Assembly: GCA_963698225.1 (NCBI GenBank)
Contig: CAVOPW010000014.1
Span: 78,033-142,032, forward strand
DNA length: 64,000 nucleotides
DNA from: an uncultured bacterium
GTDB lineage: Bacteria > Zixibacteria > MSB-5A5 > CAIYYT01
Direction: 5' to 3'
Positions 8,791 through 31,215 of this stretch are shown piece by piece; the stretch's first letter is position 1, and each line of letters opens with the position of its first letter. A program made the position numbers and the translations under genes. The notes under the pieces were generated by a model. The model saw only the letters and a program-made list of their open reading frames with translations, ran no database searches and was not told the origin of the DNA.

Positions 8791-9162
8791 ATGCATCGAA
8801 TAATCATCTTACTCGCGCTCGTCCTATTGCCGCTTTCCCAACTGCTTGCCGGGAGGATATTCGGCGATATCAAGCTGGGCGACAAGCCCGTTGCCGAAGG
8901 CGTCAAAGTCACGATTTCTGCTCCGCTCAAGGCGGCAGAGGCCGGAAAACCGGCTCCGGCACCAGTCGTGGCGGATTCCTCCGCCGCCGATAAATTCGGC
9001 GCTTATCGACTCAATGTCAAGGAAGAGGGCAAGTGTATCTTAACAGTCCACATAGATAAACAGACGCCCACACTTGAGGTCTTCTCCTATGCCAATGCGA
9101 CCCGTTATGATCTCGTTCTGGAGAAGGACAAAGACGGCAAGTACGCCTTGAAGAGGAAATAG
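8791..9162 (+). CDS. Small secreted protein, carboxypeptidase-regulatory-like beta-sandwich (hypothetical)
   Basis: AAGGAG lies 6 nt upstream of the ATG at 8791. Signal peptide 'MHRIIILLALVLLPLSQLLAG'. 'GRIFGDIKLGDKPVAEGVKVTI...GAYRLNV' fits the pattern of CarboxypepD_reg-type domains. Confidence 0.5.
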   Translation: MHRIIILLALVLLPLSQLLAGRIFGDIKLGDKPVAEGVKVTISAPLKAAEAGKPAPAPVVADSSAADKFGAYRLNVKEEGKCILTVHIDKQTPTLEVFSYANATRYDLVLEKDKDGKYALKRK

Positions 9163-9165
9163 TCG

Positions 9166-10056
9166 GTGGAGAATAAGCAGCGCGATTTCTGGGACAAACT
9201 GACCATCATACTGCAGCCCCTCGGTGGGCTGTTTACTGCCATTGCAATCACGCTTCTCGGCTTCTTCACCTCGCAATACCTCGAACGCCAGCAGTCACTC
9301 GACGCCAATACCCGGTTGTATTCGGAACTGATGAGCAACCGTGAACAATCCGAAAGCGCTCTGCGCAAGGATATGTTCGTGTCGATCATCGGGACTTTCC
9401 TGCGCCCGCAGGAATCAACAATCGGCGCGGCGGTTCTCAACCTGGAACTGCTCGCCTATAACTTCCACGAGTCGCTCAATCTTAAACCGCTCTTTACCGA
9501 TCTTCGACAAAGCATCGGCGAGCGCTTAAAACATGAGGCACGACCCGATTCTCTGGAACGATACGCGGCTTTCCAGCGCCGCCTCGAGCGCGTCGCCCGG
9601 GAGATAACCAAGAAACAAATGGTGGTACTGGAAGGCGTCGGCGTCAAGAAGGACTGGGCGGTAAGTCTGGAAGGCGAGTTTGAGGGCGTTGCTCTTGAGC
9701 CGGCGGAATTCGATCTCGATAGCGTCACGACCACTTTGGTTGTCGATGTTACCGACGTCGATCGCGAAGCCAAGGAACTGCGCCTCGATGTTACGATTCG
9801 CAGTCAAAACGGACACGGCGATCCCGTCTCCAAGAATGTTTCCTTCAGCACCGGCTTCTATGACTTCCCGATGATCGACAATACGCGCCTCCCCAACGGT
9901 CAGCGCTTCTCCGTCATCATGAACAATTTCTCCGAAATGGGCGCAGAAATCACTATTGTCCTCTTCCCCGGCGCCTACGCCAGTCTCAAAGAGAAGCCCT
10001 ATTACGGCGAAGTCATCGAAAATATCCGCAAGTCCTCACAGAACATGGGAAACTAA
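9166..10056 (+). CDS. Hypothetical membrane-anchored protein (N-terminal TM helix)
   Basis: GTG start 3 nt after the upstream stop. One hydrophobic helix 'LGGLFTAIAITLLGFFT'. The remainder has no motif I recognise. Confidence 0.45.
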   Translation: MENKQRDFWDKLTIILQPLGGLFTAIAITLLGFFTSQYLERQQSLDANTRLYSELMSNREQSESALRKDMFVSIIGTFLRPQESTIGAAVLNLELLAYNFHESLNLKPLFTDLRQSIGERLKHEARPDSLERYAAFQRRLERVAREITKKQMVVLEGVGVKKDWAVSLEGEFEGVALEPAEFDLDSVTTTLVVDVTDVDREAKELRLDVTIRSQNGHGDPVSKNVSFSTGFYDFPMIDNTRLPNGQRFSVIMNNFSEMGAEITIVLFPGAYASLKEKPYYGEVIENIRKSSQNMGN

Positions 10057-15466: not shown

Positions 15467-15496
15467 TTTCCCGAGATTTTCGGCAGAATGACGGAG

Positions 15497-15531
15497 AAGG
15501 CCCCGAATCAAGGATTCGGGGCCTTATTATT
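15497..15531 (+). terminator. Rho-independent terminator after the sugar-nucleotide operon
   Basis: Perfect 13-bp stem AAGGCCCCGAATC / GATTCGGGGCCTT with a 3-nt loop, followed by ATTATT. It lies inside the N-terminal extension of listed ORF 15488, which argues for a later start of the next gene. Confidence 0.7.
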
Positions 15532-15610
15532 GCCTGCGAATGAACCTGGACTCGATGTTGGACAAAATTGTCGCAACTTCCTCTCGCAAGGTTTCGTAAC
15601 CACTTCCATA

Positions 15611-17860
15611 ATGAGATTTGTATTCCCCGGATGGCTTTTCGCCGTTGTGCCCTTTCTCATATCGGCCTCGCTGTGCGCCGAAGCGACCTTTATTCCGAAT
15701 GAGAAACCCATTCTCAATGTTCGGCGTTCAGCCGCATCGATCAATATCGACGGCGAACTTGACGATGCGGGCTGGCAGGGTGCCGCCCGGGCGGATAACT
15801 TTGCCGAAAACACGCCGCGAGAACGAGTCAAACCGGCCGTTGATACGGAAGTGCTCGTCACCTATGACAGCGACAACCTCTACCTGGCGTTCATCTGTCA
15901 TGATGATCCCAACACCGTGCGCGCCTCCATGCGCGACCGCGACGAGATATTCAATGACGACTACGTCGGCATCCTGCTGGACACTTACGGTGACGCCGCC
16001 TGGGCCTATGAGATCTTTGTCAATCCCCTTGGGTTGCAGGGCGACCTGCGCTGGACTCCCAGTGGCGAAGACGACATAAGATTTGACATCGTCTTTTATT
16101 CGCAGGGCGCAATCACCGACAAAGGCTGGCAGGTTGAGGTCGCCATACCGTTCAGCAGTCTGCGTTTTCCCGTCAAGCCTGTTCAAGAATGGCGCGCAAC
16201 GTTCTGGCGCAATCGTCCCCGATCAGATCGTGAGCGCTCAACCTGGGCGGCGATTGACCGCGATCAGCCTTGTTTCCCCTGCCAATTCGGCACACTGATC
16301 GGATTCGAGAATGCCAAACCGGGTAGCCGCCTGGAGGTTCTCCCGGCTGTCATCGGGTTCCAGTCGGCCGCACTGCGTAATCCGGAGAATCCGCGTTCGG
16401 CGCTGGAAAACAGCGATCCGGACGGCGAAGCATCGCTGAACCTCCGCTATCTGCTGAGTTCTGACCTGACTGCCGACGTCACCTACAATCCTGATTTCAG
16501 CCAGGTCGAATCGGATGCCGCCCAGGTGGACGTTAATAACAACTTCGCCTTGTTCTATCCGGAGAAGCGCCCGTTCTTCCAGGAAGGCTCCGATCTCTTC
16601 AACACTTTTTCGAATGTCGTTTACACGAGGTCCATTAACGATCCGCTGTTCGCGGCCAAGCTGACCGGGCGACCGGCCGCTCGCACGACGGTCGGATACA
16701 TCGCTGCCCGCGATGAACACTCAGCAGTGCTGCTTCCGTTTGATGAGCATACGGACTTGTCCGAGGTCGGCAAGAGCATCAGCAATATCGTGCGCGTCAA
16801 GCAAACCGTCGGAGAAGATTCCTATCTCGGCGCGATCGCCACCGACCGCCGACTGGATGACGGCGGCTCTGGATCGGTTCTCGGCGGAGATTTCAACCTT
16901 CGACTCAACAAGAACTATCGAATCGGAGCACAGTTGCTGGCAAGTCATACTGAAGAGCCAGATGACCCCGCTCTCTTCGGCAGTCCATTGAGATTTGACG
17001 AACAGCGGCATACTGCGGCATTCGACGGTGAAAAATATTGGGGAAATACTGTCTATGCCGGACTAGCCCGCGAGGCACGGCTCTGGAATTTTGAGCTGGA
17101 GTATCGCCAGATCAGCCCGACTTTCCGTGCCGACAACGGATTCATCTTTCGCAACAATCAGCGCGAAGGCAGTCTTGAGACCGCGCTCTTCTTTCGACCT
17201 AAGTCAAAAACGTTTCTTGAAGTCACTCCTTCACTGGCCGTTGGCAGAATCTGGAATTTCTCCGGAGCGCGTAAAGACGAATGGGTGTCACCGGAAATGA
17301 GCGTCCTATTGCCCGCGCAAACTGTCGTTCAGGGTGGCTGGCTGTACAGCCGCGAAACCTTCCAGGGCATATTCTTCCCCGGAATTCGGCATTACCGGGT
17401 GTATGTTGAAAGCCGTTTTTCCGAGCCGTTAAGCCTTGGCGGACAGGTCAAACGCATCAAATACATCGCGCGCCGCCTGGAAACCCCGGTACTCGGCCAC
17501 GGATGGGAACTTGAAGCATTCTGCACATTGAAACTATTCCAGTGCCTCATCGTCCGACCCCAGTATAGTTATGAAGAATTGAACGATCCGCAAACCGATG
17601 AGACAATCTACGCCGGGTACATCCTGCGGACGCAGCTGAATTACCAGTTTACTCGCGAATGGTTTCTTCGCTTGATTATTCAATATGATAATTTTGACCG
17701 GGTGATGGGATTGGAGCCTCTGCTAAGTTACAAACTGAATCCATTTACAATCTTCTACCTTGGCTCAACTCATTCCTACCGAAACCTGCGTGATACCCGT
17801 GACCTGATCCAGAGCAATCGCCAGTTCTTTTTCAAGTTCCAGTACCTGCTGCGCGCGTAG
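15611..17860 (+). CDS. DUF5916 / CBM9-like (DOMON-like) outer-membrane-associated protein, paralog 1
   Basis: Start placed at the ATG at 15611 (signal peptide 'MRFVFPGWLFAVVPFLISASLCAEA'). 'IDGELDDAGWQGAARADNF...DSDNLYLAFICHD...DDYVGILLDTYGD' is the carbohydrate-binding-family-9-like N-domain. The long C-terminal part is beta-rich and ends in an aromatic-rich segment. A paralog lies at 31273-33940. Confidence 0.65.
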   Translation: MRFVFPGWLFAVVPFLISASLCAEATFIPNEKPILNVRRSAASINIDGELDDAGWQGAARADNFAENTPRERVKPAVDTEVLVTYDSDNLYLAFICHDDPNTVRASMRDRDEIFNDDYVGILLDTYGDAAWAYEIFVNPLGLQGDLRWTPSGEDDIRFDIVFYSQGAITDKGWQVEVAIPFSSLRFPVKPVQEWRATFWRNRPRSDRERSTWAAIDRDQPCFPCQFGTLIGFENAKPGSRLEVLPAVIGFQSAALRNPENPRSALENSDPDGEASLNLRYLLSSDLTADVTYNPDFSQVESDAAQVDVNNNFALFYPEKRPFFQEGSDLFNTFSNVVYTRSINDPLFAAKLTGRPAARTTVGYIAARDEHSAVLLPFDEHTDLSEVGKSISNIVRVKQTVGEDSYLGAIATDRRLDDGGSGSVLGGDFNLRLNKNYRIGAQLLASHTEEPDDPALFGSPLRFDEQRHTAAFDGEKYWGNTVYAGLAREARLWNFELEYRQISPTFRADNGFIFRNNQREGSLETALFFRPKSKTFLEVTPSLAVGRIWNFSGARKDEWVSPEMSVLLPAQTVVQGGWLYSRETFQGIFFPGIRHYRVYVESRFSEPLSLGGQVKRIKYIARRLETPVLGHGWELEAFCTLKLFQCLIVRPQYSYEELNDPQTDETIYAGYILRTQLNYQFTREWFLRLIIQYDNFDRVMGLEPLLSYKLNPFTIFYLGSTHSYRNLRDTRDLIQSNRQFFFKFQYLLRA

Positions 17861-18000
17861 GAGCAGCCAAGTCATCCTTCCGAATCTTGTATCTCCCGAT
17901 TGCTTCAATAGATACTTGACACTATATTGTAACAGCCCTTGAAGAACTGATTTCGCTTTCCGTTCATCAGCGCCCCGGAAAGGCAGGCACAGGCACGTTT

Positions 18001-19080
18001 GTGGACTCTGCGTTGAAGAGAATTGTCCTCGATTTCCTGCAGAAGCGACCGTCGGGAGCCGCAGCAAATCCGTTCGTCCGCTGGTGCCTCGCAGAAATTC
18101 AATATCATTTGATTCGTCTTCGCGGTGCACGGCACAGACTTCCGCTTGATCTCACCAACCCGGAGCACTCACTCGAGGATTTAGCGATAGATGTGGCCGG
18201 CTTTTATCTGGGTGAAGAGCGCGCGGAGCGATATCACAAGATATTCCACTACTTGGAAGCACACGGATACTCCGAGTTTCGCGACGAAGACCTGACGGAA
18301 ATCATCAGACTTCTGCGCGCCCAGATTGTGCAGTTTACCAACCAACGCGTCTTCAAATTCTCGCGGCAGGAGCATCCAGAATCAGGAAAGTGTAAGAAAG
18401 CCCTTGAAGCCGCCCTTGGAGTAATGGAGTCACGATCGGAAGTTATTGTCACGACTCCTGGAGGAGACCGGAACATTTTGATCGCTGATGTATCTGCAAA
18501 GGAAACGAATTCTCAGCCTCCATTTATTCCCTTTCTTGATCTGGTCGAAATCATCGACAAGATCTATGCCCAGTCACTCAACAAAATTCAGCTCTGCCGA
18601 CTGGTCCTGAAGGCAATGGCGGAACAGAGTCAATACCCGAAACACCTGTACAGGCACGAGTTCATTGAAGCAGTTGTCGTCGTGCTCGCCAGGAGAGCGC
18701 TCTTCGAAGCGCCGCGGCTATCGGCCGATGATAGCCCCATCCAGGTTATCCTCCGCCAAGAGATGGAAAACGACCTGCGCGCGACGCTGGCTGGAGCCAC
18801 GGTCGCAGATCTTGAAGAACAAGTCACAAAGTCCCGGATCAGCCCCGACGAGATCAAGCTGTTGGTGACGGCAGTGGAATGCTATCTGCTTGACAGCATG
18901 AACGGCGGCCCCGACAAGATTACCAAGTATTTCTATGCGACGATGCCGGCGCATGTTCACCGGCATTATCGTACTCAATATAAGTACGCTTTTGAAACGG
19001 TGGTCGCTCGTTCCCGGGACGATTTCCACCGGCGCATCAAAAGAAATCCGACAATCCGGAAACTCTGGGACTATCTGTAG
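18001..19080 (+). CDS. Hypothetical protein, possibly a very divergent sigma-70/ECF-like factor
   Basis: GTG start; 359 aa, helical-looking. The only hints are position (directly upstream of a zf-HC2 anti-sigma gene) and weak region-2/region-4-like strings ('EDLAIDVAGFYLGE', 'ETVVARSRDDFHRRIKRN' versus the ECF consensus 'GTVKSRLHRARKxL'). Confidence 0.25.
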   Translation: MDSALKRIVLDFLQKRPSGAAANPFVRWCLAEIQYHLIRLRGARHRLPLDLTNPEHSLEDLAIDVAGFYLGEERAERYHKIFHYLEAHGYSEFRDEDLTEIIRLLRAQIVQFTNQRVFKFSRQEHPESGKCKKALEAALGVMESRSEVIVTTPGGDRNILIADVSAKETNSQPPFIPFLDLVEIIDKIYAQSLNKIQLCRLVLKAMAEQSQYPKHLYRHEFIEAVVVVLARRALFEAPRLSADDSPIQVILRQEMENDLRATLAGATVADLEEQVTKSRISPDEIKLLVTAVECYLLDSMNGGPDKITKYFYATMPAHVHRHYRTQYKYAFETVVARSRDDFHRRIKRNPTIRKLWDYL

Positions 19081-19105
19081 ACGTGAAAGGATTCGCGGAA
19101 CTGTT

Positions 19106-19969
19106 ATGATGATACACCCGGCCCGAAAACTGCTGGAAGCACTGGCCGACAATGAGTTGAGCCCGACTGAAGGCAGCGGCGAAGTTCGCGGGCATCTCGA
19201 GGTTTGCGAGTTCTGCCGTGAGTATTTCGAGGAGTATCGCGCCCACAGCAAGGCAGTTCGCGAACTGATGGACGCACCGCTATCCGAGCGAATGACGAAC
19301 TTCCTCAGTCGCCTCGCCCGGGAGGATCGCCGCGGGCTTGTCGTCAACCTGTCGGTACTCCCGGTTGAGACAGTGGCACCGCCCAAGTATCTCGCGGCTG
19401 ACAGTCCGACAGCCGAACGATTGGAAAACTTGAGCATCGCGACGCTGTATTCGGAAAACCCTGAAATTATCCTCAAGATGATGCGCAATCAAAGCGACGG
19501 ATCGCGATATCTGCAGTTGATAGCGGAATCGATTGAGCTGACCGCCAATGTCTTGGTGTGTGCTCCGGAAATCGGCGCCGCAATCGCCACAGATGCAGAT
19601 GGTCGCGCAACGCTTCCGGAGGCTGTCACCGACAATCCGTCAAGCCTGCAATGGCAGGTTCGACTTCCCGACGCCAGTTTCGATCTTCAGCCCCTGATCT
19701 ATGCTCCCGACAAAATTGAGTATTTGCGGGAAACGGTACTTGAGTCGGATCGCGGTGATCGCATCAAAGTCACCTTCATTGCAAAGACCGTTGGAAAACA
19801 AGTCGAGATTGAACTCCTGCAACTGGATGGACAGGAGAACTTTGATCGGGTGAGGATACTCCTGGTCGAAGACCGCCGCTTCGAGCTCCAATCTCTTGTT
19901 ACCGGGCAGCGGGTGCTGTTTACACTGCCGGAACGCACTTCAAGCATCAACCTGCGGATATTCCAATAA
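19106..19969 (+). CDS. Anti-sigma factor, zf-HC2 (ZAS) type, apparently soluble
   Basis: N-terminus 'LLEALADNELSPTEGSGEVRGHLEVCEFCREYFEEY' matches the anti-sigma zf-HC2 pattern (H-x3-C-x2-C). I see no hydrophobic TM stretch in the remaining ~240 aa. Confidence 0.6.
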   Translation: MMIHPARKLLEALADNELSPTEGSGEVRGHLEVCEFCREYFEEYRAHSKAVRELMDAPLSERMTNFLSRLAREDRRGLVVNLSVLPVETVAPPKYLAADSPTAERLENLSIATLYSENPEIILKMMRNQSDGSRYLQLIAESIELTANVLVCAPEIGAAIATDADGRATLPEAVTDNPSSLQWQVRLPDASFDLQPLIYAPDKIEYLRETVLESDRGDRIKVTFIAKTVGKQVEIELLQLDGQENFDRVRILLVEDRRFELQSLVTGQRVLFTLPERTSSINLRIFQ

Positions 19970-19973
19970 AGTC

Positions 19974-22299
19974 ATGACTCTGTCGCCGCTTCAATTTGCC
20001 AAGGAATGGGAAAAACTCAAATCCAACGTCGTCAATTCTGCCTCTGGCGACCGCGGCCTGCTGCATCTGTGTGACTTCTGGCCTCACTTGAGCACACACC
20101 TCAACGAGGCTGCCTATTCGTCGTATCTGGATGAGTATTGCTCGATGATGGTTCCGTTACTCGGCGAAGCAACTCTTGCCGACATGACTCCGCCCGAACT
20201 CGAGACCTTGATCAGCATCTTAGCGTCACTTGTAATCTCAAAGAAAGCGACCTCCGAACTTACAAGTTCATTGACCACCGTATATGAGTCTGCGGCGCGG
20301 CTCAGTTTCTATGTAGGCAATCTCGAAAACGGACTTCGGTATCTGGCAAAATCACTGACAACCGAAGCGCCTGACTATCCCGAATCTGAATTCAAAGACT
20401 TAACGGATATTGTCGCGTTGCAGCAATTGACGGATACGATTTCAACCCGGCATGAATCTCTGGGCAAAGCGCTGGGAAGTATCCTCGCCGCCTGGCAGGC
20501 CGAACGCCGGGCGGTCTCAAACGAGAGCTCATATTGTCTCTTGATCGACTCCGGCGGCACATCATTGACTCCGCGCGGGAGACTTATGCTCCTCCAGGGC
20601 GACGTCGAGATTGCCGGCAACCGCTCGTCGACCGACAAAGTGACATTTGCCGACATCGTTGTCGCCCCCGACGATCCAATGATCGGCGGTGCCTATCGAT
20701 CGCTCGAATCGGTCCGCCAGCTATTGCAACGGCAGGGAATCAGCAGTTTGGCAAAAAAGCGCTTCAATGCCAATTTTCGCATGGCCGGCGCCGATCATCG
20801 TCTGACTGGTGAATCAATGGGCCTGGCCTTTGCCCTTGTAGCATACACCCAACTCCTCAAATCCGAGGCCCACCGTGTCGAACGATTCAATTCTGCCGAA
20901 GTGGCCGTCACCGGAGTCTTGGACGACACTGGGACTCTTCTGCCGGTAAATGACAGCACAATCGCCATCAAAATCGCTCGCGCCTTCTTCTCCCACCTTC
21001 GCTATCTGGTGATCCCGGAACCCAATTTCGAATCTGCACGACTCGAATTATCCCGTCTGCAGGCAGAATATCCCCGTCGTCAATTGATTCTGGTCGGAGC
21101 GCGTTCGCTGGGCGATGCCGTGGCCGATCTGAACATCATTCGTTCTGAACGCGTCTGTATTGGCGAATGGGTCGGCAAACAGGCCGTCAAGTACAGCCGC
21201 ATGACCAAGGTTCAGGTTCCGATGCTGGCGATTCTGGCATATCTGATGCTATGCCTCATTCTACCGCAGGCTTGGATCCTCTTCGATGACAATCCGGCAT
21301 TCTTGCGTCCTGACCTGAAAACCGGCACGATTGAAGTATTCAATGCGGACTCGACCCGCCTCTGGACACATCAGTTTCCTCATGCATTCAATGATCACTT
21401 CACTGCGGCGCAGTTTCCAACCATGATGACGGCTTCGGACATAGATGGCGATGGTGACAACGAAGTGCTCGCTATTGCCCTGAATGAAAACGACGTAGAG
21501 GAAAATGCCTGGCTCTGCTGTTTTGACAGCAAGGGGACTCTCCGGTTTCGCCGATATTTGGTTGTGCCCAACGAGTACCCCGGCGATACCGACAGCACAA
21601 CTTACCATGGTTTTGCGGTTTATCCAGTTAGGATGAAGGACACAACTTACATGCTGACGATCGCGACGCAAGTCCTGCCGGCACGTTGTCACATACGCCT
21701 CTGGAATGCTAATGGAGACTCCCTTCTCTGGTTCATTCAGGCGGGCGGTAGCCGAGTTAGGCTGGCAAGAGACATTGACCTTGACGGCTCGGAAGAGATG
21801 GTTTTCTCCGCCTTCAACAATCGCCTTGGATGCGCTACCTTCTTTGCGGTCAATCTTGCGACCAAGAGCGGCTGTTCGCCCCCCTACGAAGATCCTCAAT
21901 ACGATCTTAGCAAATTGAAACGGGCATCTGACTTCTACTATGCGGCATTTCCGCCGACCGACCTTTGTGGACGCGACTGTTCCGCTCGGTATAATCAGCC
22001 GGGCGTCATCGGACTGCGTGACCGCAATGGCGGACTTATCGATGTATACACTTCGGAATCGCATATTCCGAACTGTGAAGCTGTTTATTCTCTCGATCGC
22101 GGCTTCCGCGCCAGGAATGTGGCTTTCACCGACGGCTATGTCGAACGACGGAAGGATCTGATCGACGCGGGCGAATTCCCAGTACCCCGACTCTGCCTAT
22201 TCTGCCAACATCTTGAATGCCGTCCGCTACTGGACAGCCAAAGGCTGGGTCACTGAAGGTGAGCTTCGCGCTCGCGATGGCGGCTCGGCGACTTTCTAA
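19974..22299 (+). CDS. Membrane-anchored Lon-like (S16) Ser-Lys peptidase domain protein with C-terminal FG-GAP/VCBS-like propeller; probable +1 frameshift at C4 run 22185-22188
   Basis: ATG at 19974, 4 nt after the upstream stop. 'LTGESMGLAFALVAYTQLL...VAVTGVLDDTGTLLPVNDSTIAIKIARAF' parallels Lon 'DGPSAG...AMTGE..L.G.V.PIGG..EK..AA' (Ser and Lys retained). TM helix 'VPMLAILAYLMLCLILPQAWILF'. FG-GAP-type 'ASDIDGDGDNEVLA' and 'ARDIDLDGSEEMVFS'. The observed frame ends at 22256 in implausible 'RLCLFCQHLECRPLL'. Deleting one C gives '...VPDSAYSANILNAVRYWTAKGWVTEGELRARDGGSATF*', ending at 22299. Confidence 0.6.
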
Positions 22300-22568: not shown

Positions 22569-22606
22569 GGCCGGCGGCGCAATGGGCGCTGCCGGCCTTA
22601 CTATTT
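22569..22606 (+). terminator. GC-rich hairpin / probable bidirectional terminator between convergent genes
   Basis: 12-bp stem GGCCGGCGGCGC / GCGCTGCCGGCC (one G.U pair) with a 5-nt loop, followed by TTACTATTTT on the + strand. It lies between the Lon-like gene and the end of the response-regulator gene. Confidence 0.45.
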
Positions 22607-22610
22607 TAGG

Positions 22611-23303
22611 CTAATTTACAATTAGCCGGAACCCTTTGCCATGAATACCCATGATCTCGATGCTGTCATCATCACGAAGATACTTACGCAGTTTGGAAAT
22701 GAACACATCCATGCTGCGGCCAGAGAAGTAGCTCTCGTCGCCCCAAATCTCTCGCAAAGCGACTTCCCGTTCCAAGATCTGATTCTTGTGGATACACAGC
22801 AGCCGCAAGAGGTCGGCCTCTTTGGGGGTCAGCTTGAATTGCTCTCCGTCCTTCGTCAAAAGCTGGCGATTGTAATCAAATGTAAACCTGCCGATCTCAA
22901 ACATCACCGGCAGATCAACCGGTTTTGGTGCCGGCTTGGATCGCCGTAATACCGCCGTTATGCGCAGCATCAATTCTTCCATACTGAAGGGCTTGGTAAG
23001 GTAATCATCACAGCCGATCTTGAAGCCCTCGATCTTGTCTTCTTTCAGCGACTTCGCCGTCAGAAAGATAAGCGGGACCTCCTGGTCACGTTCACGGACC
23101 TTTCGGGCAAACGTAAACCCATCAAGTTTCGGCATCATGACATCGACCAGGCACAAGTCATACTTGCTGCTACGATATGCGTTGAGACCTTCTTCCCCAT
23201 TGACGCAGAGCAGGACTTCGAAACCCTGCATCTGAAGGTGCTCCTGAAGAATGAAACCCAGGTTCGGATCGTCTTCCAGTAGTAATACCCTCTGCTTTGT
23301 CAT
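22611..23303 (-). CDS. OmpR/PhoB-family response regulator
   Basis: Receiver 'VLLLEDDPNLGFIL...DLCLVDVMMPKLDG...FLTAKS' and winged-helix 'LTPKEADLLRLL...VFISKLRKYL...GKGFRL'. Confidence 0.9.
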   Translation of the reverse strand: MTKQRVLLLEDDPNLGFILQEHLQMQGFEVLLCVNGEEGLNAYRSSKYDLCLVDVMMPKLDGFTFARKVRERDQEVPLIFLTAKSLKEDKIEGFKIGCDDYLTKPFSMEELMLRITAVLRRSKPAPKPVDLPVMFEIGRFTFDYNRQLLTKDGEQFKLTPKEADLLRLLCIHKNQILEREVALREIWGDESYFSGRSMDVFISKLRKYLRDDDSIEIMGIHGKGFRLIVN

Positions 23304-25022
23304 GAGTCCAGCTCTGTAGCGTCAACCGTCGGGAACCGAAGTTCAATTCTTGTCCCAACGCCGGGTTTACTCTCAAGACGAATCGATCCGCGGTGTGCTT
23401 CGACCATCATTTTCACGTAACTCAATCCCAGCCCGAATCCCTTGACGTTATGGACATTCCCGGAGGGAACGCGGTAGTATTTTTCGAAGACCAGTCTCTG
23501 CTCGGCCTCGGCAATTCCCAGGCCTTTGTCGGAAATGGTGACCACAAGTTCGGCGGCTTCATTCCTGGTGCGGACTTCAATCTCCGGCACATCCGGTGAG
23601 TACTTGATGGCGTTATCGAGCAGATTGTTGATGATGTTGGTGAGATGAAGATTATCCCCCAGCACAACGAAATGCGTTGCCGCCAAATCGCTGAATAGTC
23701 TGCCCCTGCGATTCTCGATGTGCAGACCGATACCTTCAACCGCGGTACGAACGATCTGATGAAGGTCGATCCGGGAAAGCTTGAGATCGTAGTCGCCCTC
23801 TTCGATAACAGCCAACTGCAGGATCTTTTCAACCTGATGGCGCATTCGCTGGTTTTCATCAAGGATCATCCGGCCATATTTGCCGATCCGCTCCGGTTGT
23901 TGAATTACATCGGGACGCATGATCGCCTCGCACGCCAGCGCCACAGTGGAAATCGGCGTCTTGAATTCGTGAGTCATATTATTGATAAAGTCGACAATGC
24001 GCACGGCAAACCGCTTCTGTGACAACATCACCCGGACAGTATAGGTGAAGACGGCAACAATGACGGCGATAAAAAGCAAATTGGTCAACACCAACATGCT
24101 CATCTGCTTCCACAAATAGACACTGCGTTCAGGGAAGGACACCGCCAAATCACTCCGCGCCGACAACCTGTCGCTGGGGAAGAGGCGCGTGCGAAAGCCG
24201 GCTTTCATCAATCGATCACGTGAGATTGAGGAAGACGCGACTCGTATGGAATCGTTGTCTCCGGAAAAGACGGCATACTCAAATTCAAGATGTATCCCCG
24301 ACTCGTCCAACGCCGTGCGCAGCAGTGTGTCCAGCTGTTCCCTCGTGATGCGTTGTTCAATCGGTTCCAGTTCGGCGACCACCATGTCGCTGACCACCCG
24401 CTTGAGATAGTTCTCTTTGCGCGTGGCCCCGATCATCGGCCCCAGCGGCATCAACTCCGAGCCGTTGTGTATTTGAAAGATCGTCGAAGCCGAATCGGTG
24501 CGAAACATGTACATCATTCGACTGCCGGTTTGCGGCAGATCACTGACGTCGACCTGATACTTGCCGGCGTTGCGAAAGGTGTCCACGACGACGCGATCGG
24601 TGCCTTGCGTCTGGTCATAGATCTTGATCAGGACATGCTGGGGACTCCCGACCTCGTAATTCAAGCACGCCATCAGCAATGGTCAACGGACAGTCCGCCA
24701 TGGCTGCAGAGAAGACACTGCCTTCGTCAATTAGCATGCCATCGACTTCAATCGAATCGTCGCCCGGCGCAGTCGAGTGCGCGACATTCACCTGCCACAG
24801 GGATTGGGTCGGGGCGGCCGTTCCTAACGCAATCGTGAATGTCTCGCTGTTTTCCAGTCGTTGGGAGACAGTAGTCAGCGCCATCAGGACATTGCGCCGG
24901 AAGACTTGCTCTTTCTGCTCAAGTGCCAGCTGCAGCAAGTAAACCTGCAGTGCGACCAGGCCGCCGAGCGAAATCACCATTAGCGCGATCACAACGCCAA
25001 CTGAACGACGCGATAAATTCAT
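23300..25022 (-). CDS. Sensor histidine kinase (HisKA + HATPase_c), split by a +1 frameshift in 24615-24685
   Basis: ORF 24615..25022 supplies the N-terminal TM and sensor part ('VVIALMVISLGGLVALQVYLL'). ORF 23300..24679 carries a second TM, the H-box 'NMTHEFKTPIS', the N-box 'NLLDNAIKYS' and G-boxes 'DKGLGI'/'GFGLGLS'. The two frames overlap by 65 nt and differ by +1. There is a 4-nt overlap with the RR gene. Confidence 0.85.
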
Positions 25023-25060
25023 TGCTACAATATACGCATGGAAACGCCCGGCACCAGAGC

Positions 25061-25110
25061 TCTTAACACTTCTTAACAGCCTATAACAAGCCTTAACTAC
25101 GCCGTTGACA
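25061..25110 (+). promoter_or_regulatory. Four 10-bp-phased direct repeats (TCTTAACA-like) abutting a TTGACA hexamer: candidate OmpR-type binding site/promoter for the 25176 operon
   Basis: TCTTAACACT (25061), TCTTAACAGC (25071), CTATAACAAG (25081) and CCTTAACTAC (25091), then TTGACA at 25105-25110. They sit in the divergent spacer between the HK/RR operon and the PDZ/ABC operon. Confidence 0.4.
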
Positions 25111-25175
25111 ACCTATGGGTTATCGTTGCCGTACGAAGACTATCGACTTTTACCAATCTGAAGAAGAGGTTTGCT

Positions 25176-25994
25176 ATGCTGAAAATCATTTTTGAAATTG
25201 CGCTGACCTTCCTTATCAGCAGCGCCAGTTCCCTGTTGGGTCAACAAGTTTTCGCGGCTGCCGATGGCGAGCCGCAAATGCGCATGTTCGCCTCCGGCGA
25301 AGTTGTCTTTCTCCCCGAAACCGGAGCCGTGATAATGCTCAAGGACAAGTCGTTGGTCATTGATATGGTCAGCCCGTCCGAGCAGCGCGCCAAAGAATAT
25401 CAAACGGTCGACCTGAAGATGAACGATCAGGTCCTGATGATTAACGGCAAGAAGGTTGTGACCATATCCGACCTCAAAACCGTCTATGATTCCGTCGCTA
25501 TCGGCTCCGATGTAAAACTCGGCATCCGCCGCGGCAAGGACATGATGATCGTCGCATTCCCCAAAGCTGATCAAACCAAAATGACACAACACCGGGTAAT
25601 GACCGTTGAGACCGACGATGCCGGTGAAGTCGTCAGTGGTACCGGGAACGGCAAACAAGTGATGACGTTTCGCGCCAGTGAAGGGGGAGTTGCCGTGATA
25701 CCGGAAATCGGACTGATACTTCATGAAGCCGATTCCAAGGTAAAAGTAGCCGGTCTGCTCGAGGCCGAACTCAATCCGGACAAGGACGCCGTGGCCGAAG
25801 GTGACGTGGTCAGCGCAATCATGTCCGGCAAAGTGAAGACGGTCAAAGAATTCACGGACATCTACGACAAAATTGCCGTCGGAGCCGAATTCACCGTTTC
25901 CATAAACCACGGTGGAAAAACCTTGACACTCAAAGCCACGAAAAAGGCCAAACCGGAAGGCACGAAAATTATCAGAACAATCGAGAACAATTAG
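25176..25994 (+). CDS. Secreted protein with two PDZ-like domains
   Basis: Signal peptide 'MLKIIFEIALTFLISSASSLLGQQ'. Two copies of a PDZ-like pattern: 'MNDQVLMINGKKVVTISDLKTVYDSVAIGSDVKLGIRRGKDMMIVAF' and 'EGDVVSAIMSGKVKTVKEFTDIYDKIAVGAEFTVSINHGGKTLTL'. Confidence 0.55.
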   Translation: MLKIIFEIALTFLISSASSLLGQQVFAAADGEPQMRMFASGEVVFLPETGAVIMLKDKSLVIDMVSPSEQRAKEYQTVDLKMNDQVLMINGKKVVTISDLKTVYDSVAIGSDVKLGIRRGKDMMIVAFPKADQTKMTQHRVMTVETDDAGEVVSGTGNGKQVMTFRASEGGVAVIPEIGLILHEADSKVKVAGLLEAELNPDKDAVAEGDVVSAIMSGKVKTVKEFTDIYDKIAVGAEFTVSINHGGKTLTLKATKKAKPEGTKIIRTIENN

Positions 25995-25997
25995 CCG

Positions 25998-27497
25998 ATG
26001 CCGCGCTTAACCGGTCTCATTCTGGCGCTATGCCTGTGCGTAGGATTCAACGGACTGACCGCCTACGGCCAAAGCAACAACTTCAATCAGCGTGATGACA
26101 AATACCGTTTGCTCGGTCTAAAGCGCGCCAAGGAGGCGTATGAAGTCGCACGGGCGGAATATCAACGACAGGAAGAGATGTTTACACGTCAGCTCATCAC
26201 CAAATCCGAACTTGAAAGAGCGCGCAACACCTTTTCCGATGCCGAGGTCAACTACCAGCAGTCCCTGTTGGCCGTCCTGTTTGAAGAGCAATACGTCACT
26301 GTCGAAGGCGCAGTGAAGTATCAGGACCAAAATGGACGCAAGCATGTGCGGCTGACCCTGGTCAATGCTTCCGGCGGCAGCGCGGAATTCTACAAGCTGA
26401 TCGAAATGGAGGATGAACTCTTTCGCTCGCTGCAGCCGGATGTCATCAACAACGTCTATGTGTCGTTGCTTAATGAAAACGGAGCGACCATTAGCCAGCC
26501 ATACGAAGCAAAAATTGAACAGCTCAAGTTCGGCGCGCCCGCCGTAATCGACTTCGCTCTTCTGCAGGACCTCGATGCCGTCACGGTATACCTCATCTAT
26601 GGCAGCGGCACGCAGCGCAATATGAAGATCTTCCTTCAAAAAGATGCTACCGTCAACATGGTCGCAGTGCAGTCAGAACAGTTCTCGCAGGAAGTCGAAC
26701 TTGGCAAGTCCGCCTCCTTTGACCTGACTCTGGAGCTGTATAGCGGCACCGAAAACACTTTCAGCCTCGAAGTCGTAAACCTGCCCGAGCAGATCAGTCG
26801 CTTTTTCAAAGAACCGTCCGGATCAGCTCGCTTGAGCCAGTTGAAGTTCACAGAAAGCACGCACACCAAGAAGGCATCCTTGGAAGTCACACTTCCCGAC
26901 CGCCCGACCGCGGCCGTCGAAATGGATAAGCCAATCGCATTTTACGTGTTGGTCATCCCGCGCGATCGCCTGAATGACCTGCCTGACTTGCGTTCAAAGG
27001 AATGGACGCAGAGCGAAATCGCAGCGCTGGGCGTGGGATTTGCAAGAATGGAAATCCTGCCTCGCGGTAAGGGCAAGTTGCTTGTGCGCGCAACGCAACT
27101 CTATCATGCCATCAAGTCCGACGGTACCGTCGTGATGAGCATCGACTTGGTCAATGAAGGCAGCCATCGGCTTGATAACATCGAGGTCAAGGCTGACATG
27201 CCGCTCAATTGGTCCAAGCAGATTGAACCGGCCATTGTCTCGAAACTGGAAATCGGCGGTGAAACCCGCGTCAATTTGACCTTCACACCGCCGGACAATA
27301 TCTCCGCGGGCAAATATGAAGTCCGCCTGCGAACGACGGCGATGTCCAATTCACAGCCGATTGTCAGTGAAGACAAAAGCGTCACTGTCGAGATACTTCC
27401 CGACTCCAATATTCTCGGAACACTGTTGATCCTGGTGCTGATCATTGGTCTTGTATCCGGCATTGTGATTTTCGGGATCAAACTTTCACGGCGATAG
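25998..27497 (+). CDS. Exported coiled-coil / NEW3-like beta-sandwich protein with C-terminal TM anchor (COG1470-like)
   Basis: Signal peptide. The N-terminal coiled coil 'RAKEAYEVARAEYQRQEEMF...ELERARNTFSDAEVNYQQSL' resembles a periplasmic adaptor hairpin. There are repeated beta-sandwich segments (e.g. 'GKYEVRLRTTAMSNSQPIVSEDKSVTVEI'). C-terminal TM 'LGTLLILVLIIGLVSGIVIFGI'. Confidence 0.45.
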   Translation: MPRLTGLILALCLCVGFNGLTAYGQSNNFNQRDDKYRLLGLKRAKEAYEVARAEYQRQEEMFTRQLITKSELERARNTFSDAEVNYQQSLLAVLFEEQYVTVEGAVKYQDQNGRKHVRLTLVNASGGSAEFYKLIEMEDELFRSLQPDVINNVYVSLLNENGATISQPYEAKIEQLKFGAPAVIDFALLQDLDAVTVYLIYGSGTQRNMKIFLQKDATVNMVAVQSEQFSQEVELGKSASFDLTLELYSGTENTFSLEVVNLPEQISRFFKEPSGSARLSQLKFTESTHTKKASLEVTLPDRPTAAVEMDKPIAFYVLVIPRDRLNDLPDLRSKEWTQSEIAALGVGFARMEILPRGKGKLLVRATQLYHAIKSDGTVVMSIDLVNEGSHRLDNIEVKADMPLNWSKQIEPAIVSKLEIGGETRVNLTFTPPDNISAGKYEVRLRTTAMSNSQPIVSEDKSVTVEILPDSNILGTLLILVLIIGLVSGIVIFGIKLSRR

Positions 27498-27528
27498 ATT
27501 CGAAATTGAATAGCTATGCGAGGTCCAA

Positions 27529-28290
27529 ATGAGTGAAACCCCTCTACCGACATCACAACCGATGCTTGAAGCAGTCAATTTGACCAAGCGTTACGAGGAC
27601 GGTGTGCTCGCACTCGACCGCGTATCGTTCCAGGTGCGGCCTGGCGAGATCTTTGCCATGCTCGGTGGCAACGGCGCCGGCAAGACCACAACGATAAATC
27701 TCTTCCTGAATTTCATCGAGCCGACCGACGGCGAGGCCCGCATCAACGGCATCGTCACGCATCTCTACCCCCTGAAGGCTAAGGAGCAGATCGCCTTCGT
27801 GTCCGAAAACGTGATGCTCTACGCTAATTTCACGGCGATTCAGAATCTTGATTTCTTTGCGCGCCTGGGCGGTCAAACACGCTATACGCGGGAAGACTAT
27901 CACAATGTCCTCTTGCGCGTCGGCCTGGCGAAGGAGGCGCATAACAAGCGCCTGCGGGGATATTCCAAAGGAATGCGACAGAAGTGCGGAATCGCAATCG
28001 CCATTCTCAAGAATGCTCCGGCCATCCTGCTCGATGAACCGACTTCCGGACTCGACCCCAAAGCCGGACACGATTTTATCGAGCTGTTGGGTTCACTGCG
28101 CGCGGAAGGGAAAGCGATACTGATGTCGACTCACGATATTTTCCGGGCCAAGGAAATCGCCGACACCGTGGCGATCATGAACGACGGAAGGATCATTATG
28201 CAGCGACCGGCCGCGGACCTTGTCGATCACAACCTTGAACAACTCTATATGCAGTATATGGCCGGGCGATCATCGGAACTTGTCGGTTGA
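27529..28290 (+). CDS. ABC transporter ATP-binding protein (ABC-2 subfamily)
   Basis: Walker A 'GGNGAGKTTT', signature 'YSKGMRQK', Walker B 'ILLDEPTSGLDP' and H-loop 'STHD'. Confidence 0.9.
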   Translation: MSETPLPTSQPMLEAVNLTKRYEDGVLALDRVSFQVRPGEIFAMLGGNGAGKTTTINLFLNFIEPTDGEARINGIVTHLYPLKAKEQIAFVSENVMLYANFTAIQNLDFFARLGGQTRYTREDYHNVLLRVGLAKEAHNKRLRGYSKGMRQKCGIAIAILKNAPAILLDEPTSGLDPKAGHDFIELLGSLRAEGKAILMSTHDIFRAKEIADTVAIMNDGRIIMQRPAADLVDHNLEQLYMQYMAGRSSELVG

Positions 28291-28302
28291 GCGGAGGAAC
28301 GC

Positions 28303-29724
28303 ATGCTGAAAACCCTGATAGAAAAGGAAATTCGCGACATTATCGGTTCCGCCAAGTTCGCTGTCATCTTTGGCGCCTGCGCTATCCTGATTCTGACCTC
28401 CTTCTATGTGGGAGCCCGCACCTACCAGGCCAATCGCGCCCAATATGAAGCGGCCAAAGCCGAGAATCTGCGCCAGTTCGAGGGCATGACCGAGTGGTTC
28501 AATGTCCAGCAACATCGCATCTTTCTGCCACCGCAACCTCTGGCGTCGCTGGTCAACGGAGTGTCGAACGATATCGGCCGCACGACCGAAGTTTGGGGAC
28601 GCGGCGAACTCTCCGCGCAGGACAGCAAGTTCGGGGACGAACCGATATATGCGGTGTTTCGATTTCTCGACTTGGAGTTCATGTTCCAAGTCGTGCTTTC
28701 ACTTTTCGCCGTACTGCTCGGCTATGATGCCATCAGCGGCGAAAAGGAGCGCGGAACGCTCAAACTCTCGTTTGCCAATGCCGTCCCGCGCGACAAATAC
28801 ATTCTCGGCAAGATCGTCGGCAGCCTGGCGGCGCTCTCGGTACCGCTGTGTGCTGCCCTGGGAATCGGCTGCCTTCTCCTCCCGCTGCTGGGAGTTCCCC
28901 TCTCCGGCGACGACTGGATGCGGCTAATCCTCATCATCCTGACCGGACTGCTGTACTTTGCCGCCTTCCTGACCCTGTCCATATTTGTTTCCGCCCGGAC
29001 CGAACGGTCTTCCAGTTCGTTTCTTGTGCTGCTGGTCGTCTGGATTCTCTGTGTATTGATTGTTCCACGTGCATCAGTTCTAATGGCCGGCCGTGCTGTT
29101 GATGTGCCGTCAGTCGACGAACTGGCTGCCCAGAAGGCTCGCTTCCAGCAGCAGCAGTGGCAGGAAGATCGTGCCAGCTGGTCAAATTTCAAGCCTACCA
29201 AGAGCGACGATCCGGGCGCAATGATGGACGAATTGAATCGCTTTATGGAAGAACAGGCTGATATCCGCGACAAGAAGATGCAGGAACTGACGTCGCGGCT
29301 GAATGAACAGCGCCACAACAAGCAGATCGAACAGCAGGAATTGGCGTTCAGCCTGGCTCGCGTGTCGCCCGCTGCCACGCTTTCGCTGGGAGTGACGAGC
29401 CTGGCCGGAACATCGATCACGCTAAAAAACCATTACAATGATGAAGCCAGGGCCTACCAGACACTTTATGCAAGCTTCATGAAAGAGAAGACCGGCACAA
29501 CTCCCGGCGGGCGCATGTTCATGTTCCGCGCCAGGATCGACGACGGCGAAGAGACCCAGCCCGAGCCGATCAATCCCCAGGAACTCCCGCAGTTTGAGTA
29601 TCACCAGCCCGATCTGGCGCAGTCGATATCGGCAGCCGCACTTGATATGGGGCTCCTGGCTATCTTTAACCTGTTATTCTTCGCCGGAGCGTTTGTTTCG
29701 TTCCTGCGATATGATGTTCGCTGA
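28303..29724 (+). CDS. ABC-2 family permease with long hydrophilic coiled-coil insertion (DUF3526-like), paralog A
   Basis: N-terminal TM, then a 5-TM ABC-2 core ('GEKERGTLKLSFANAVPR' conserved loop). This is followed by ~170 aa of charged coiled coil ('QKARFQQQQWQEDR...EQRHNKQIEQQELAF') and a final TM. The next gene has the same architecture. Confidence 0.7.
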   Translation: MLKTLIEKEIRDIIGSAKFAVIFGACAILILTSFYVGARTYQANRAQYEAAKAENLRQFEGMTEWFNVQQHRIFLPPQPLASLVNGVSNDIGRTTEVWGRGELSAQDSKFGDEPIYAVFRFLDLEFMFQVVLSLFAVLLGYDAISGEKERGTLKLSFANAVPRDKYILGKIVGSLAALSVPLCAALGIGCLLLPLLGVPLSGDDWMRLILIILTGLLYFAAFLTLSIFVSARTERSSSSFLVLLVVWILCVLIVPRASVLMAGRAVDVPSVDELAAQKARFQQQQWQEDRASWSNFKPTKSDDPGAMMDELNRFMEEQADIRDKKMQELTSRLNEQRHNKQIEQQELAFSLARVSPAATLSLGVTSLAGTSITLKNHYNDEARAYQTLYASFMKEKTGTTPGGRMFMFRARIDDGEETQPEPINPQELPQFEYHQPDLAQSISAAALDMGLLAIFNLLFFAGAFVSFLRYDVR

Positions 29725-29748
29725 CAGCCCGGCAAGGAGATTCAGACT

Positions 29749-31215
29749 ATGCTTTCAGTGTTGATACAAAAGGAACTCAAAGCGATTATCTTGAGCCCCA
29801 AATTCACCGCCACGTTCGTCATCTGCTCGCTGTTGATGCTGTTAAGCGTCTTTATCGGAATTCAGGAGTATCAGAATTCGGTCAAGCAATACGACGCCGG
29901 CAAGCAGTTGATTGTCGAGGGCGCCCGCGAAGCAACTTCCTGGAATGCCCTGCGCTATCGGGTTTACCGCGCTCCCGATCCGATGCAGATCTTCGTCTCC
30001 GGGCTCAATTACGACATTGGCCGCTGGTCGGCGATCGACTCGCAGAGCATGGTCAAACTGCGGAACAGTTCATACTCCGACGATCCGATCTTCGCGGTGT
30101 TCCGCTTCATTGATTTCGCCTTCATCGTACTGGTGGTGCTTTCGTTGTTTGCCATCATGTTCACCTACGATGCGGTCAACGGCGAACGCGAGGATGGTAC
30201 GCTGAAACTGGTCTTCGCCAACGCCGTTCCTCGAGCCAGTTACATTCTGGCAAAGTGTATCGGCGGCTGGCTGGGGCTGGTTGTCCCAATATGTCTGCCA
30301 ATACTCTTGAGCATTCTGCTGGTCCAGCTTTTTGGGATTCCGTTTTCTGCCGACCACTGGCTGCGGCTGGCAACCTTGATTGCCGCCGCAATTGCCTTCT
30401 TCACTTTCTTCATCATTCTGGGCGTGCTGATCTCCGCGCTGACCAAACGTCCAAGCGTGTCGTTCCTATTGGCGCTGGTGGCCTGGATTGTGTTCGTGCT
30501 GATCATTCCCCGTGCCGGCGTTATCGTCGCCGGACAGGTACTTCCCGTTCCCAGCACGGCGGAGGTCGAAGGCCAGGTACAGAGTTTTTCGAAGGATCGC
30601 TGGGCAACATTCTATTCTGCCCAGGAAGAACGCTGGCGGGCAAGAAGCCTTCATGACAACCGATCTGAAGGAGATGTATCGTCCGTAGATGAAGAACAGC
30701 TGTGGAAGTATATGGAAGAAGATGATGCCGCGCGCAAGGCCGTGCAGGAAGAAATCGATGAGTTCGACCGCAAGCTCAATGACGACCTGCGGCACCGCCG
30801 TGCCGCGCAAGAACGCCTGGCTTTTTCATTGTCGCGTTTCTCGCCGGCCTCCGCATTCCAGCTCGCGGCGATGGACCTGGCCGGATCGGACATTGCCCTC
30901 AAGTCCCGCAATGAAGAGGCCATGGACGCCTATCGGACACAGTACACGCAGTTCGTTCAGTCGAAACAGGCCGAATCCGGTCCCGGTGCCGGAGCATTTA
31001 CCATTCAAATCGACACAGAAAAAGGCGTCTCGATCGGCACTCCGCGCGATCAGGCCGCCATTGATGCGACACAACTGCCGGCATTCGTACCGCCGTCATT
31101 TAGTTTCGCCGATGCCGCGGCTGCGTTTCTCCTCGATCTGGGGTTGCTGCTGGTCTTCTCAATTGTCGCGTTTGGCGGAGCGTTTGCCGCATTTCTCCGT
31201 TATGATGTCAGATGA
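29749..31215 (+). CDS. ABC-2 family permease with coiled-coil insertion (DUF3526-like), paralog B
   Basis: Collinear with the previous gene ('GEREDGTLKLVFANAVPR', 'LAFSLSRFSPA', C-terminal 'FLRYDVR' in both). Confidence 0.7.
   Translation: MLSVLIQKELKAIILSPKFTATFVICSLLMLLSVFIGIQEYQNSVKQYDAGKQLIVEGAREATSWNALRYRVYRAPDPMQIFVSGLNYDIGRWSAIDSQSMVKLRNSSYSDDPIFAVFRFIDFAFIVLVVLSLFAIMFTYDAVNGEREDGTLKLVFANAVPRASYILAKCIGGWLGLVVPICLPILLSILLVQLFGIPFSADHWLRLATLIAAAIAFFTFFIILGVLISALTKRPSVSFLLALVAWIVFVLIIPRAGVIVAGQVLPVPSTAEVEGQVQSFSKDRWATFYSAQEERWRARSLHDNRSEGDVSSVDEEQLWKYMEEDDAARKAVQEEIDEFDRKLNDDLRHRRAAQERLAFSLSRFSPASAFQLAAMDLAGSDIALKSRNEEAMDAYRTQYTQFVQSKQAESGPGAGAFTIQIDTEKGVSIGTPRDQAAIDATQLPAFVPPSFSFADAAAAFLLDLGLLLVFSIVAFGGAFAAFLRYDVR

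Follow-up and report, generated by a model that had tools for sequence, protein, structure and literature searches.

We analysed a stretch of 64,000 nucleotides (nt) of contig CAVOPW010000014.1 from an uncultured bacterium of the Zixibacteria (assembly GCA_963698225.1; henceforth referred to as ‘the window’, in whose numbering positions are given unless otherwise indicated) and describe here three genes, A, B and C, which together occupy positions 18001-22299 of its forward strand. Gene A (18001-19080) begins with a GTG codon and encodes a soluble all-alpha protein of 359 amino acids (aa), which belongs to an unannotated family and is the presumed partner, or output, of protein B. Gene B (19106-19969) encodes a soluble protein of 287 aa that consists of an N-terminal anti-sigma domain of the zf-HC2 type and an uncharacterised C-terminal domain, and gene C (19974-22299) encodes a Lon-like sensor peptidase of ~775 aa that is predicted to reside in the membrane. 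The list of open reading frames (ORFs) places all three genes co-directionally on the forward strand with gaps of 25 nt between A and B (19081-19105) and 4 nt between B and C (19970-19973), in full agreement with a preliminary description of this DNA that had been made from its letters alone. That description had also assigned ~775 aa and an end at 22299 to C, which holds when an apparent frameshift is read through and does not hold for the annotated ORF, which starts with ATG at 19974 and stops at 22256 after 760 aa. Alignment of the DNA with three related loci (L005, L012 and L009) and translation in three frames located the frameshift to positions 22175-22188 of the forward strand, where two 1-nt gaps at ~22177 and ~22186 move the final ~30 codons into the wrong frame; the conserved C-terminus, which in homologues of 775-777 aa reads ...PDSAYSANILNAVRYWT..GW.TEGELR, is encoded in another frame that ends with a stop codon at 22297-22299. 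Since both gaps adjoin runs of cytosine, an assembly indel is the likely and simplest explanation, and a recent mutation may instead be responsible.

The AlphaFold model of C (mean predicted local distance difference test score (pLDDT) 77.5) begins with an all-helical domain that is predicted to be cytoplasmic (~aa 1-182; 19974-20520; helices H6-H180 at a pLDDT of ~80-90), as had been anticipated from the amino acid sequence. This is followed by a protease domain of Lon fold and S16 type that lacks an ATPase module (~aa 185-395; 20526-21150). When the model was compared with the PDB by Foldseek, the best 50 matches were all Lon proteins (E 8e-9 to 3e-7), with TM-scores of 0.75-0.80 when normalised to the E. 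coli Lon P-domain and a root-mean-square deviation of ~3.2 Å over ~200 columns. HHalign aligned C with the E. coli Lon P-domain at a probability of 88.8% (E 2.5e-6). In this alignment, S679 of Lon pairs with the Ser of ‘GESMG’ (282 in the alignment numbering) and K722 with the Lys of ‘IAIKIA’ (334). The corresponding catalytic residues of window C, Ser281 (20814-20816) and Lys333 (20970-20972), are invariant in 17/17 full-length homologues with identities as low as 28%. A word-indexed homologue search with C returned nine relatives at 30-81% identity together with one identical entry, and in the alignment of the nine homologues the motif G-x-S-x-G-x-A (which contains Ser282), K334, R337 and S341 are invariant (all in alignment numbering). 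The C family profile also matched archaeal and bacterial Lon in the PDB, weakly (E 0.01-0.05) and through the motif VAxTG...LPV...K...IP.N. A Walker A motif was present in none of the 17 family members and window C had no Pfam AAA match. The earlier assignment of an ATPase-less Lon-type domain that retains the Ser/Lys dyad is thus borne out by the fold (Foldseek E ~1e-8), by the absence of Walker A in the 17 members and by the aligned, invariant dyad. In one locus (L025; positions 6947-9640 of that locus, 898 aa) the C homologue is longer than the family profile by an insertion of ~120 aa, which separates the N-terminal part from the Lon Ser motif (profile positions 252-259). The protease-domain fold and the Ser-Lys dyad are shared with LonA, LonB and LonC, of which archaeal LonB is likewise membrane-anchored and LonC is devoid of ATPase activity. 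In contrast to these proteins, C has no AAA+ module of any kind, falls below every Pfam Lon model, possesses a different N-domain and continues C-terminally into a transmembrane helix and an external sensor.

The single transmembrane helix of C (aa 413-436; 21210-21281; Kyte-Doolittle maximum 2.24; AlphaFold helix 409-430) is the sole hydrophobic helix in the protein. It is flanked by five basic and one acidic residues on its N-terminal side and by two basic and four acidic residues on its C-terminal side, and this positive-inside bias predicts that the N-terminus lies in the cytoplasm and the C-terminus outside, as the preliminary description had proposed when it placed the C-terminal region in the periplasm. 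The remainder of C (21282-22296) forms a beta-rich domain, predicted to be extracytoplasmic, that resembles FG-GAP proteins. Whereas Pfam and NCBIfam searches with window C alone yielded nothing except a sub-threshold match to FG-GAP_3 (E 0.05), FG-GAP_3 matched 11/15 C-terminal domains of the family (best E 1.5e-5), and two FG-GAP-type DxDxDG..E loops (21438-21464 and 21771-21797), the calcium-loop repeats of the earlier reading, are conserved in the family alignment. The top matches of the external-domain profile in the PDB were all FG-GAP beta-propellers, namely YesW (E 3.5e-5), the PL11 lyase, the Vibrio hemolysin-related 6mlt, YesX and CRTAC1 (E range 3.5e-5 to 3e-3). The AlphaFold model contains ~22 strands in ~300 residues of this domain at a pLDDT of 55-90, and we infer that it is likely to be a closed multi-blade propeller. 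A SAVED or CARF Pfam domain was not found in window C. By analogy with the CRISPR-associated Lon-type protease CalpL (see below), the N-terminal helical domain may serve to dock the substrate.

Protein B contains the zinc motif H-x3-C-x2-C (HLEVCEFC; aa 30-37; 19193-19216, forward strand), in which H30, C34 and C37 are invariant in 33/33 homologues. The Pfam zf-HC2 model scored window B at 19.6 bits, i.e. below its gathering cut-off of 22.2, and matched 10 of the 23 B family members at E≤0.1 (best E 6.8e-6), so that the zf-HC2 search suggested in the preliminary description found support in the family while window B itself stayed under the cut-off. The B family profile gave a very short list of matches in the PDB, which included RsiW (5wuq; E 1e-3 over aa 14-78) as well as DdvA, RslA and ChrR, suggesting that the similarity to solved anti-sigma domains extends beyond the zinc motif in a weak but consistent manner. 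Together, the invariant H/C/C residues and the RsiW match uphold the reading of ‘GHLEVCEFC’ as part of an anti-sigma N-terminus. No segment of transmembrane-level hydrophobicity was found in B, which, as had been noted, sets it down as a soluble protein; its isoelectric point (pI) is 4.9, and its C-terminal 190 residues did not match known families. Just after the anti-sigma domain, an otherwise variable linker ends in the motif [L/M]AA. In window B this is L-A-A-D (aa 96-99; 19391-19402, forward strand), a candidate cleavage site and C-terminal degron, and [L/M]AA[D/E/K] is found in 33/33 homologues: LAA in 29 and MAA in four (all of one clade), with LAA in every one of the first 14 homologues and in 15 of the 19 further ones, and with D, E or K as the residue that follows.

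The linkage of the three genes was assessed in 34 loci. Thirteen of these were anchored on C (the window, L001, L002, L004-L009, L012 and L014-L016), one (L017) was anchored on a distant A homologue, making 14, and the other 20 were metagenome loci that were found through a conserved A motif and are hence anchored on A. The order A-B-C was seen in all 13 C-anchored loci and in L017; in the A-anchored loci, B followed A in 19/19 cases with room on the contig and C followed B in 16/16 cases with room. The preliminary description had proposed gene-neighbourhood conservation as a check, and the order A-B-C was indeed kept across the 34 loci wherever the contig allowed. The distance between the stop codon of B and the start codon of C ranges from −4 to +4 nt (i.e. 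some of the frames overlap), which fits translational coupling. The named genomes that contain the triad are metagenome-assembled genomes (MAGs) of Zixibacteria, some of which are labelled ‘uncultured Ignavibacteria’. We found no names for A, B or C in sequence databases and no published description of the triad in the literature. One such MAG, CAZKIH01, contains two paralogous triads (L011 and L015), whose C proteins share 59% and 32% identity with window C, and the second of these triads has proteins with LamG domains and type IX secretion system (T9SS) tails on both sides.

These data bear on the simplest alternative, namely that C serves as a membrane peptidase in housekeeping or quality control, or processes itself or exported proteins, and that A and B are unrelated neighbours. 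ATPase-less Lon-like peptidases with other roles are known, for example LonC and the PDZ-Lon proteins. Nevertheless, the strict A-B-C order in 34 loci down to ~15-30% identity, together with the overlapping B/C frames, is incompatible with chance neighbours, and the protease domain of C is predicted to lie in the cytoplasm, apart from any exported substrates. We therefore consider this alternative very improbable indeed.

The preliminary description had not recognised the arrangement as one that is known. A counterpart does exist, since the CalpL/CalpT/CalpS system has been characterised as a Lon-type sensor protease with a soluble anti-sigma factor and a sigma factor. In CalpL, a Lon-type protease without an ATPase is joined to a SAVED sensor; the protein oligomerises in response to cyclic tetra-adenylate (cA4) and cuts the soluble anti-sigma factor CalpT at LAA↓A; exposure of the LAA degron is required for CalpS, the sigma factor, to be set free. 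Like our triad, this system is a three-gene module with a Ser-Lys protease of Lon type that lacks an ATPase and has a helical domain at its N-terminus and a sensor domain at its C-terminus. Its substrate, too, is a soluble protein of anti-sigma type, and the [L/M]AA of B lies at a place equivalent to that of the LAA of CalpT, i.e. after the inhibitory domain; by analogy with LAA↓A in CalpT, [L/M]AA would be the cleavage site of B. The differences are nevertheless considerable. Whereas the SAVED sensor of CalpL binds cA4 in the cytoplasm, the sensor of C comprises a transmembrane helix and a predicted extracytoplasmic FG-GAP domain; whereas CalpL/CalpT/CalpS is associated with type III CRISPR, the triad has no CRISPR association in the annotated loci; the N-terminal fragment of CalpT carries a MazF domain where the inhibitory domain of B is zf-HC2; and CalpS is ECF-like (extracytoplasmic function-like) whereas A is not recognisable as an ECF sigma factor. 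The gene order of the triad (partner, inhibitor, protease) also differs.

Two other groups of systems are comparable in part. In the RseA/DegS/RseP/ClpXP and RsiW/PrsW/RasP systems, as proposed here, an extracytoplasmic signal leads to proteolytic removal of a zinc-associated anti-sigma (ZAS) or other anti-sigma domain, and RseA is handed to ClpXP through a C-terminal Ala-Ala degron (VAA). However, the anti-sigma protein itself spans the membrane in those systems and is cut by two proteases in sequence, whereas B is soluble, C joins sensor and protease in one polypeptide and the module encodes no site-2 metalloprotease. The hybrid two-component sensors of Bacteroidota possess a periplasmic beta-propeller that probably reads glycans, and signal through a kinase phosphorelay to an AraC-type DNA-binding output. 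They resemble C as inner-membrane sensors of the FCB group that are encoded near genes for secreted glycan-active proteins, and differ from it in that the output of C is a protease and not a kinase with an AraC domain.

If B is an anti-sigma protein, the obvious question is whether A is a sigma factor. The preliminary description had called A faintly sigma-like, and in the corresponding reading A would be a true, extremely divergent sigma-70 or ECF factor and the triad a new ECF group in which a membrane Lon-like protease removes the anti-sigma protein. ECF sigma factors are the characterised binding partners of class I anti-sigma domains of the zf-HC2 type, and B has a complete class-I-like domain, as judged from its alignment with RsiW. 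Further, among the neighbour genes in ~8 kb around the annotated loci none had a Sigma70 Pfam match, which leaves A as the sole candidate partner of B. Protein A lacks a transmembrane segment and is mildly basic (pI 8.2). When 1.84 billion representatives were searched exhaustively with a profile, its family amounted to 1,012 clusters (50% identity) at E≤1e-3, falling to 521 at E≤1e-10, and nearly all lengths lay between 320 and 390 aa; a word-indexed search had shown only 8-10 relatives for A and C and thereby understated the size of the A family. Two subfamilies can be told apart by the most conserved, C-terminal motif of the family (residues 292-336 of window A), which reads P.YFRE.MP...YL..YKY.FET in one and GGPAQSYY.YL...YR..YR..FEYLAE in the other; both keep their B and C partners, and L007 and L017 belong to the second.

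Direct comparison with sigma factors gave little. Single-sequence searches of Pfam, NCBIfam and the PDB with A returned nothing, and the same was true of an 8-sequence A profile against the PDB and of a Pfam scan of the 8 members. None of the 123 full-length A family members matched any sigma model in Pfam or NCBIfam, including Sigma70_r2 and Sigma70_r4, and a profile of the 123 sequences retrieved no sigma chain from the PDB at E≤10. HHalign of A against a 5-sequence ECF profile gave a probability of 0.5%, and against a 17-sequence ECF profile a probability of 3.4%, which is not significant: in leave-one-out controls, real divergent ECF sigma factors scored 99%, and unrelated families scored 0.1-0.3%, which is lower than A. 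The 17-sequence profile consisted of five ECF sequences and 12 plasmid-encoded sigma genes, as a homologue search with E. coli RpoE returned near-identical orthologues only; of the five, RpoE was identical to the database entry (100%), SigW was 73% identical to Lysinibacillus SigW, and all five matched one another as ECF sigma factors. The two best HHalign segments of A fall in collinear order on sigma region 2 (A 94-136 with regions 2.1-2.2 and A 188-266 with regions 2.3-2.4), an apparent correspondence that we regard as a lead and not as evidence. The AlphaFold model of A, made from a 10-sequence alignment, has a pLDDT of 73 (~50 in the N-terminal half and ~90 in the C-terminal half). In Foldseek searches of the PDB and BFVD it had no match below E 0.1, a result to be read with the low pLDDT of its N-terminal half in mind, and sigma and TFIIB chains recurred among the non-significant matches, at noise level only. 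No helix-turn-helix of the region 4.2 type was recognised in A. The description of A as sigma-like thus found no support in the profile searches or in the structural comparison that had been put forward to check it. A paralogous relationship between A and the N-domain of C was rejected (HHalign probability 0.2%). Elsewhere in the window, the ORF at 7216-8094 gave a marginal phmmer match to RpoE that proved spurious; we take its translation to be a pyridoxal-5'-phosphate synthase of the PdxS type.

The sequence upstream of A is also relevant to the sigma question. A candidate sigma-70-type promoter, TTGCTT-17 nt-TATATT (17900-17928, forward strand), was identified by eye as a match to the consensus only and is conserved in five related genomes. 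In the distant loci L014, L015, L004 and L001, too, gene A is preceded by the layout TTGnnn-17-TATnTT, which brings the number of lineages to five. The recurrence of this layout speaks for expression of the triad from an ordinary sigma-70-like promoter and not from an autoregulated promoter of ECF type. When the regions upstream of A were compared with those upstream of the downstream neighbour genes, they shared only sigma-70-like promoters and one 10-mer, and ECF-type autoregulation of the triad was rejected. The 10-mer, GTTCCTATCT, is found in L004 both ~75 nt upstream of A and ~130 nt upstream of the FG-GAP gene that follows C; ~0.04 chance matches of this kind are expected per locus and five loci were examined, and the two copies may either mark a common regulatory site or be coincidental. 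Overall, with promoters of sigma-70 and not ECF type added to the results obtained with A itself, we consider it unlikely, though well worth weighing, that A is a divergent sigma factor. At the start of A, a 22-nt block, GGCAGGCACAGGCACGTTTGTG (17982-18003, forward strand), the 3' end of which is the GTG start codon, is found unchanged in five related genomes and almost unchanged in L006, whereas the intergenic DNA around it varies. No obvious Shine-Dalgarno sequence was seen in the region of the block. Its conservation in L006 indicates that the A gene call in that locus (317 aa) begins too late.

Directly upstream of the triad, a gene at 15488-17860 encodes a 790-aa DUF5916/CBM9 protein and is syntenic in all close relatives. 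Downstream, a strong GC-rich hairpin with a 12-bp stem and a T-run (22569-22597; from a terminator scan) separates C from the convergent response-regulator gene of a two-component system, the synteny of which is conserved in the window clade. The region 22611-31215 contains, besides the convergent genes for this response regulator and its histidine kinase, genes for a PDZ protein, an NPCBM_assoc protein and an ABC transporter, and is syntenic in close relatives; the domain assignments in this region were carried over from related loci. In the five distant loci L001, L002, L004, L014 and L015 the next co-directional gene after C encodes in each case (5/5) a large secreted (or T9SS) protein with domains for the binding of glycans: a Peptidase_C10 protein with a T9SS tail in L001, a protein with a T9SS tail in L002, where a beta-helix protein comes next, an FG-GAP protein in L004, a BACON/PKD/CBM96 protein in L014 and a LamG/dockerin/T9SS protein in L015. 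We regard these genes as candidate members of the regulon of the triad.

The neighbourhood also has to be considered with respect to a second role for the same proteolytic logic, i.e. defence against phage or stress by a CalpL-like switch for abortive infection, in which C would sense envelope damage or phage attachment and freed A would be a toxic or growth-arresting effector and not a regulator of nearby genes. Members of the C family matched in PADLOC the models CARF_LON (5/9 members, best E 8.8e-5), CRISPR-Lon (one) and SAVED_LON_TM (one) and no other, so that C touches no defence-database models other than those of the CRISPR-Lon type; freed CalpS is reported to arrest the growth of E. 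coli; A has no transcription-factor signature; and the pairing of an acidic B with a basic A is reminiscent of some antitoxin/toxin pairs. Genes for an integrase and a transposase are found close to L001 and L002, and the occurrence of two paralogous triads in one MAG could be viewed in the same light. However, neither A nor B had a PADLOC match, and no cas, CBASS or other defence genes were present in any neighbourhood: within ±8 kb of the eight annotated loci there were no cas genes, and the sole trace was a weak Cas_csx3 match on a 63-aa ORF in L002/L003. In the window clade, moreover, the triad is embedded among syntenic housekeeping genes (sugar-nucleotide enzymes and the two-component system) and is kept there at C identities of 57-78%, and an FG-GAP ligand-binding sensor with secreted glycan-binding neighbours fits the sensing of nutrients or of the envelope better than defence. 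We thus hold a defence role to be distinctly improbable.

The reading that we prefer, although at no better than an even chance, is that the triad constitutes a one-step transmembrane switch based on regulated proteolysis, of the CalpL/CalpT/CalpS type. In this model, C would reside in the inner membrane with its FG-GAP domain in the periplasm and its helical and ATPase-less Lon-type Ser-Lys domains in the cytoplasm. Soluble B would keep A inactive through its N-terminal zf-HC2 domain, and the C-terminal domain of B would probably dock on the helical N-domain of C. Binding of an extracytoplasmic ligand to the sensor (in view of the secreted glycan-binding neighbours, this ligand could be a glycan or some part of the envelope) would change the oligomeric state or the conformation of C, and the Lon domain would then cut the linker of B after [L/M]-A-A. 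The new C-terminus ending in LAA would act as an ssrA-like degron, through which proteases of the ClpXP type would remove the anti-sigma domain and so free A, which would then act, most likely on transcription. The preliminary description had envisaged a similar chain, from an external sensor through a cytoplasmic Lon-like domain and a soluble anti-sigma protein to a sigma-like protein; given the domains of C and B, the predicted topology, the dyad, the linkage and the LAA motif, its logic is plausible up to the last step, and it is the sigma-like output that is not supported.

Several observations weigh against the proteolytic switch. The cleavage, the binding and the signal are all inferred. 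The Pfam Lon_C model, with which the preliminary description had proposed to search, did not match window C even at E≤1; the CRISPR-Lon matches of C in PADLOC, which in kind point towards CalpL, are weak and confined to the region of the Lys motif; and the solved CalpL chains were not among the best 50 Foldseek matches of C. The [L/M]AA of B could be a structural element rather than a cleavage site. On the output side, Pfam, NCBIfam, the PDB, Foldseek and HHalign detected no kinship of A with sigma factors or with DNA-binding families, and an autoregulated promoter of ECF type was not seen upstream of A in the five lineages. Lastly, genes for T9SS cargo are probably common in these genomes, and the pattern of secreted neighbours may therefore be due to chance.

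Set against the CalpL system, the features that are new in the triad are the transmembrane extracytoplasmic sensor, the zf-HC2 protein as the candidate substrate and an output protein, A, that belongs to no recognised family. With somewhat less assurance than we attach to the switch itself, and hence tentatively, we suggest that the triad represents a widespread and undescribed class of transmembrane signalling system in which the receptor itself is a Lon-type protease and A is a new kind of effector, which could be either a sigma-like factor that has diverged beyond recognition or a protein of non-sigma type under the control of an anti-sigma domain. The model makes predictions that can be tested at defined residues, namely at the dyad Ser281/Lys333 of C and at [L/M]AA (aa 96-98) of B. 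The proteolytic routes known to lead from the envelope to transcription use a membrane-spanning anti-sigma factor and a relay of proteases, and CalpL, which established that a Lon-type protease can be a ligand-gated switch in its own right, responds only to a second messenger of CRISPR systems in the cytoplasm. Should the model be correct, a Lon-type switch would here be wired to an extracytoplasmic sensor in a receptor-protease made of a single polypeptide, in a large family of uncultured bacteria that databases leave unannotated. Protein A belongs to a sizeable dark family that is tied to an anti-sigma domain, and knowledge of its role would add a new branch to the sigma family or else reveal that the reach of anti-sigma domains goes beyond sigma factors.

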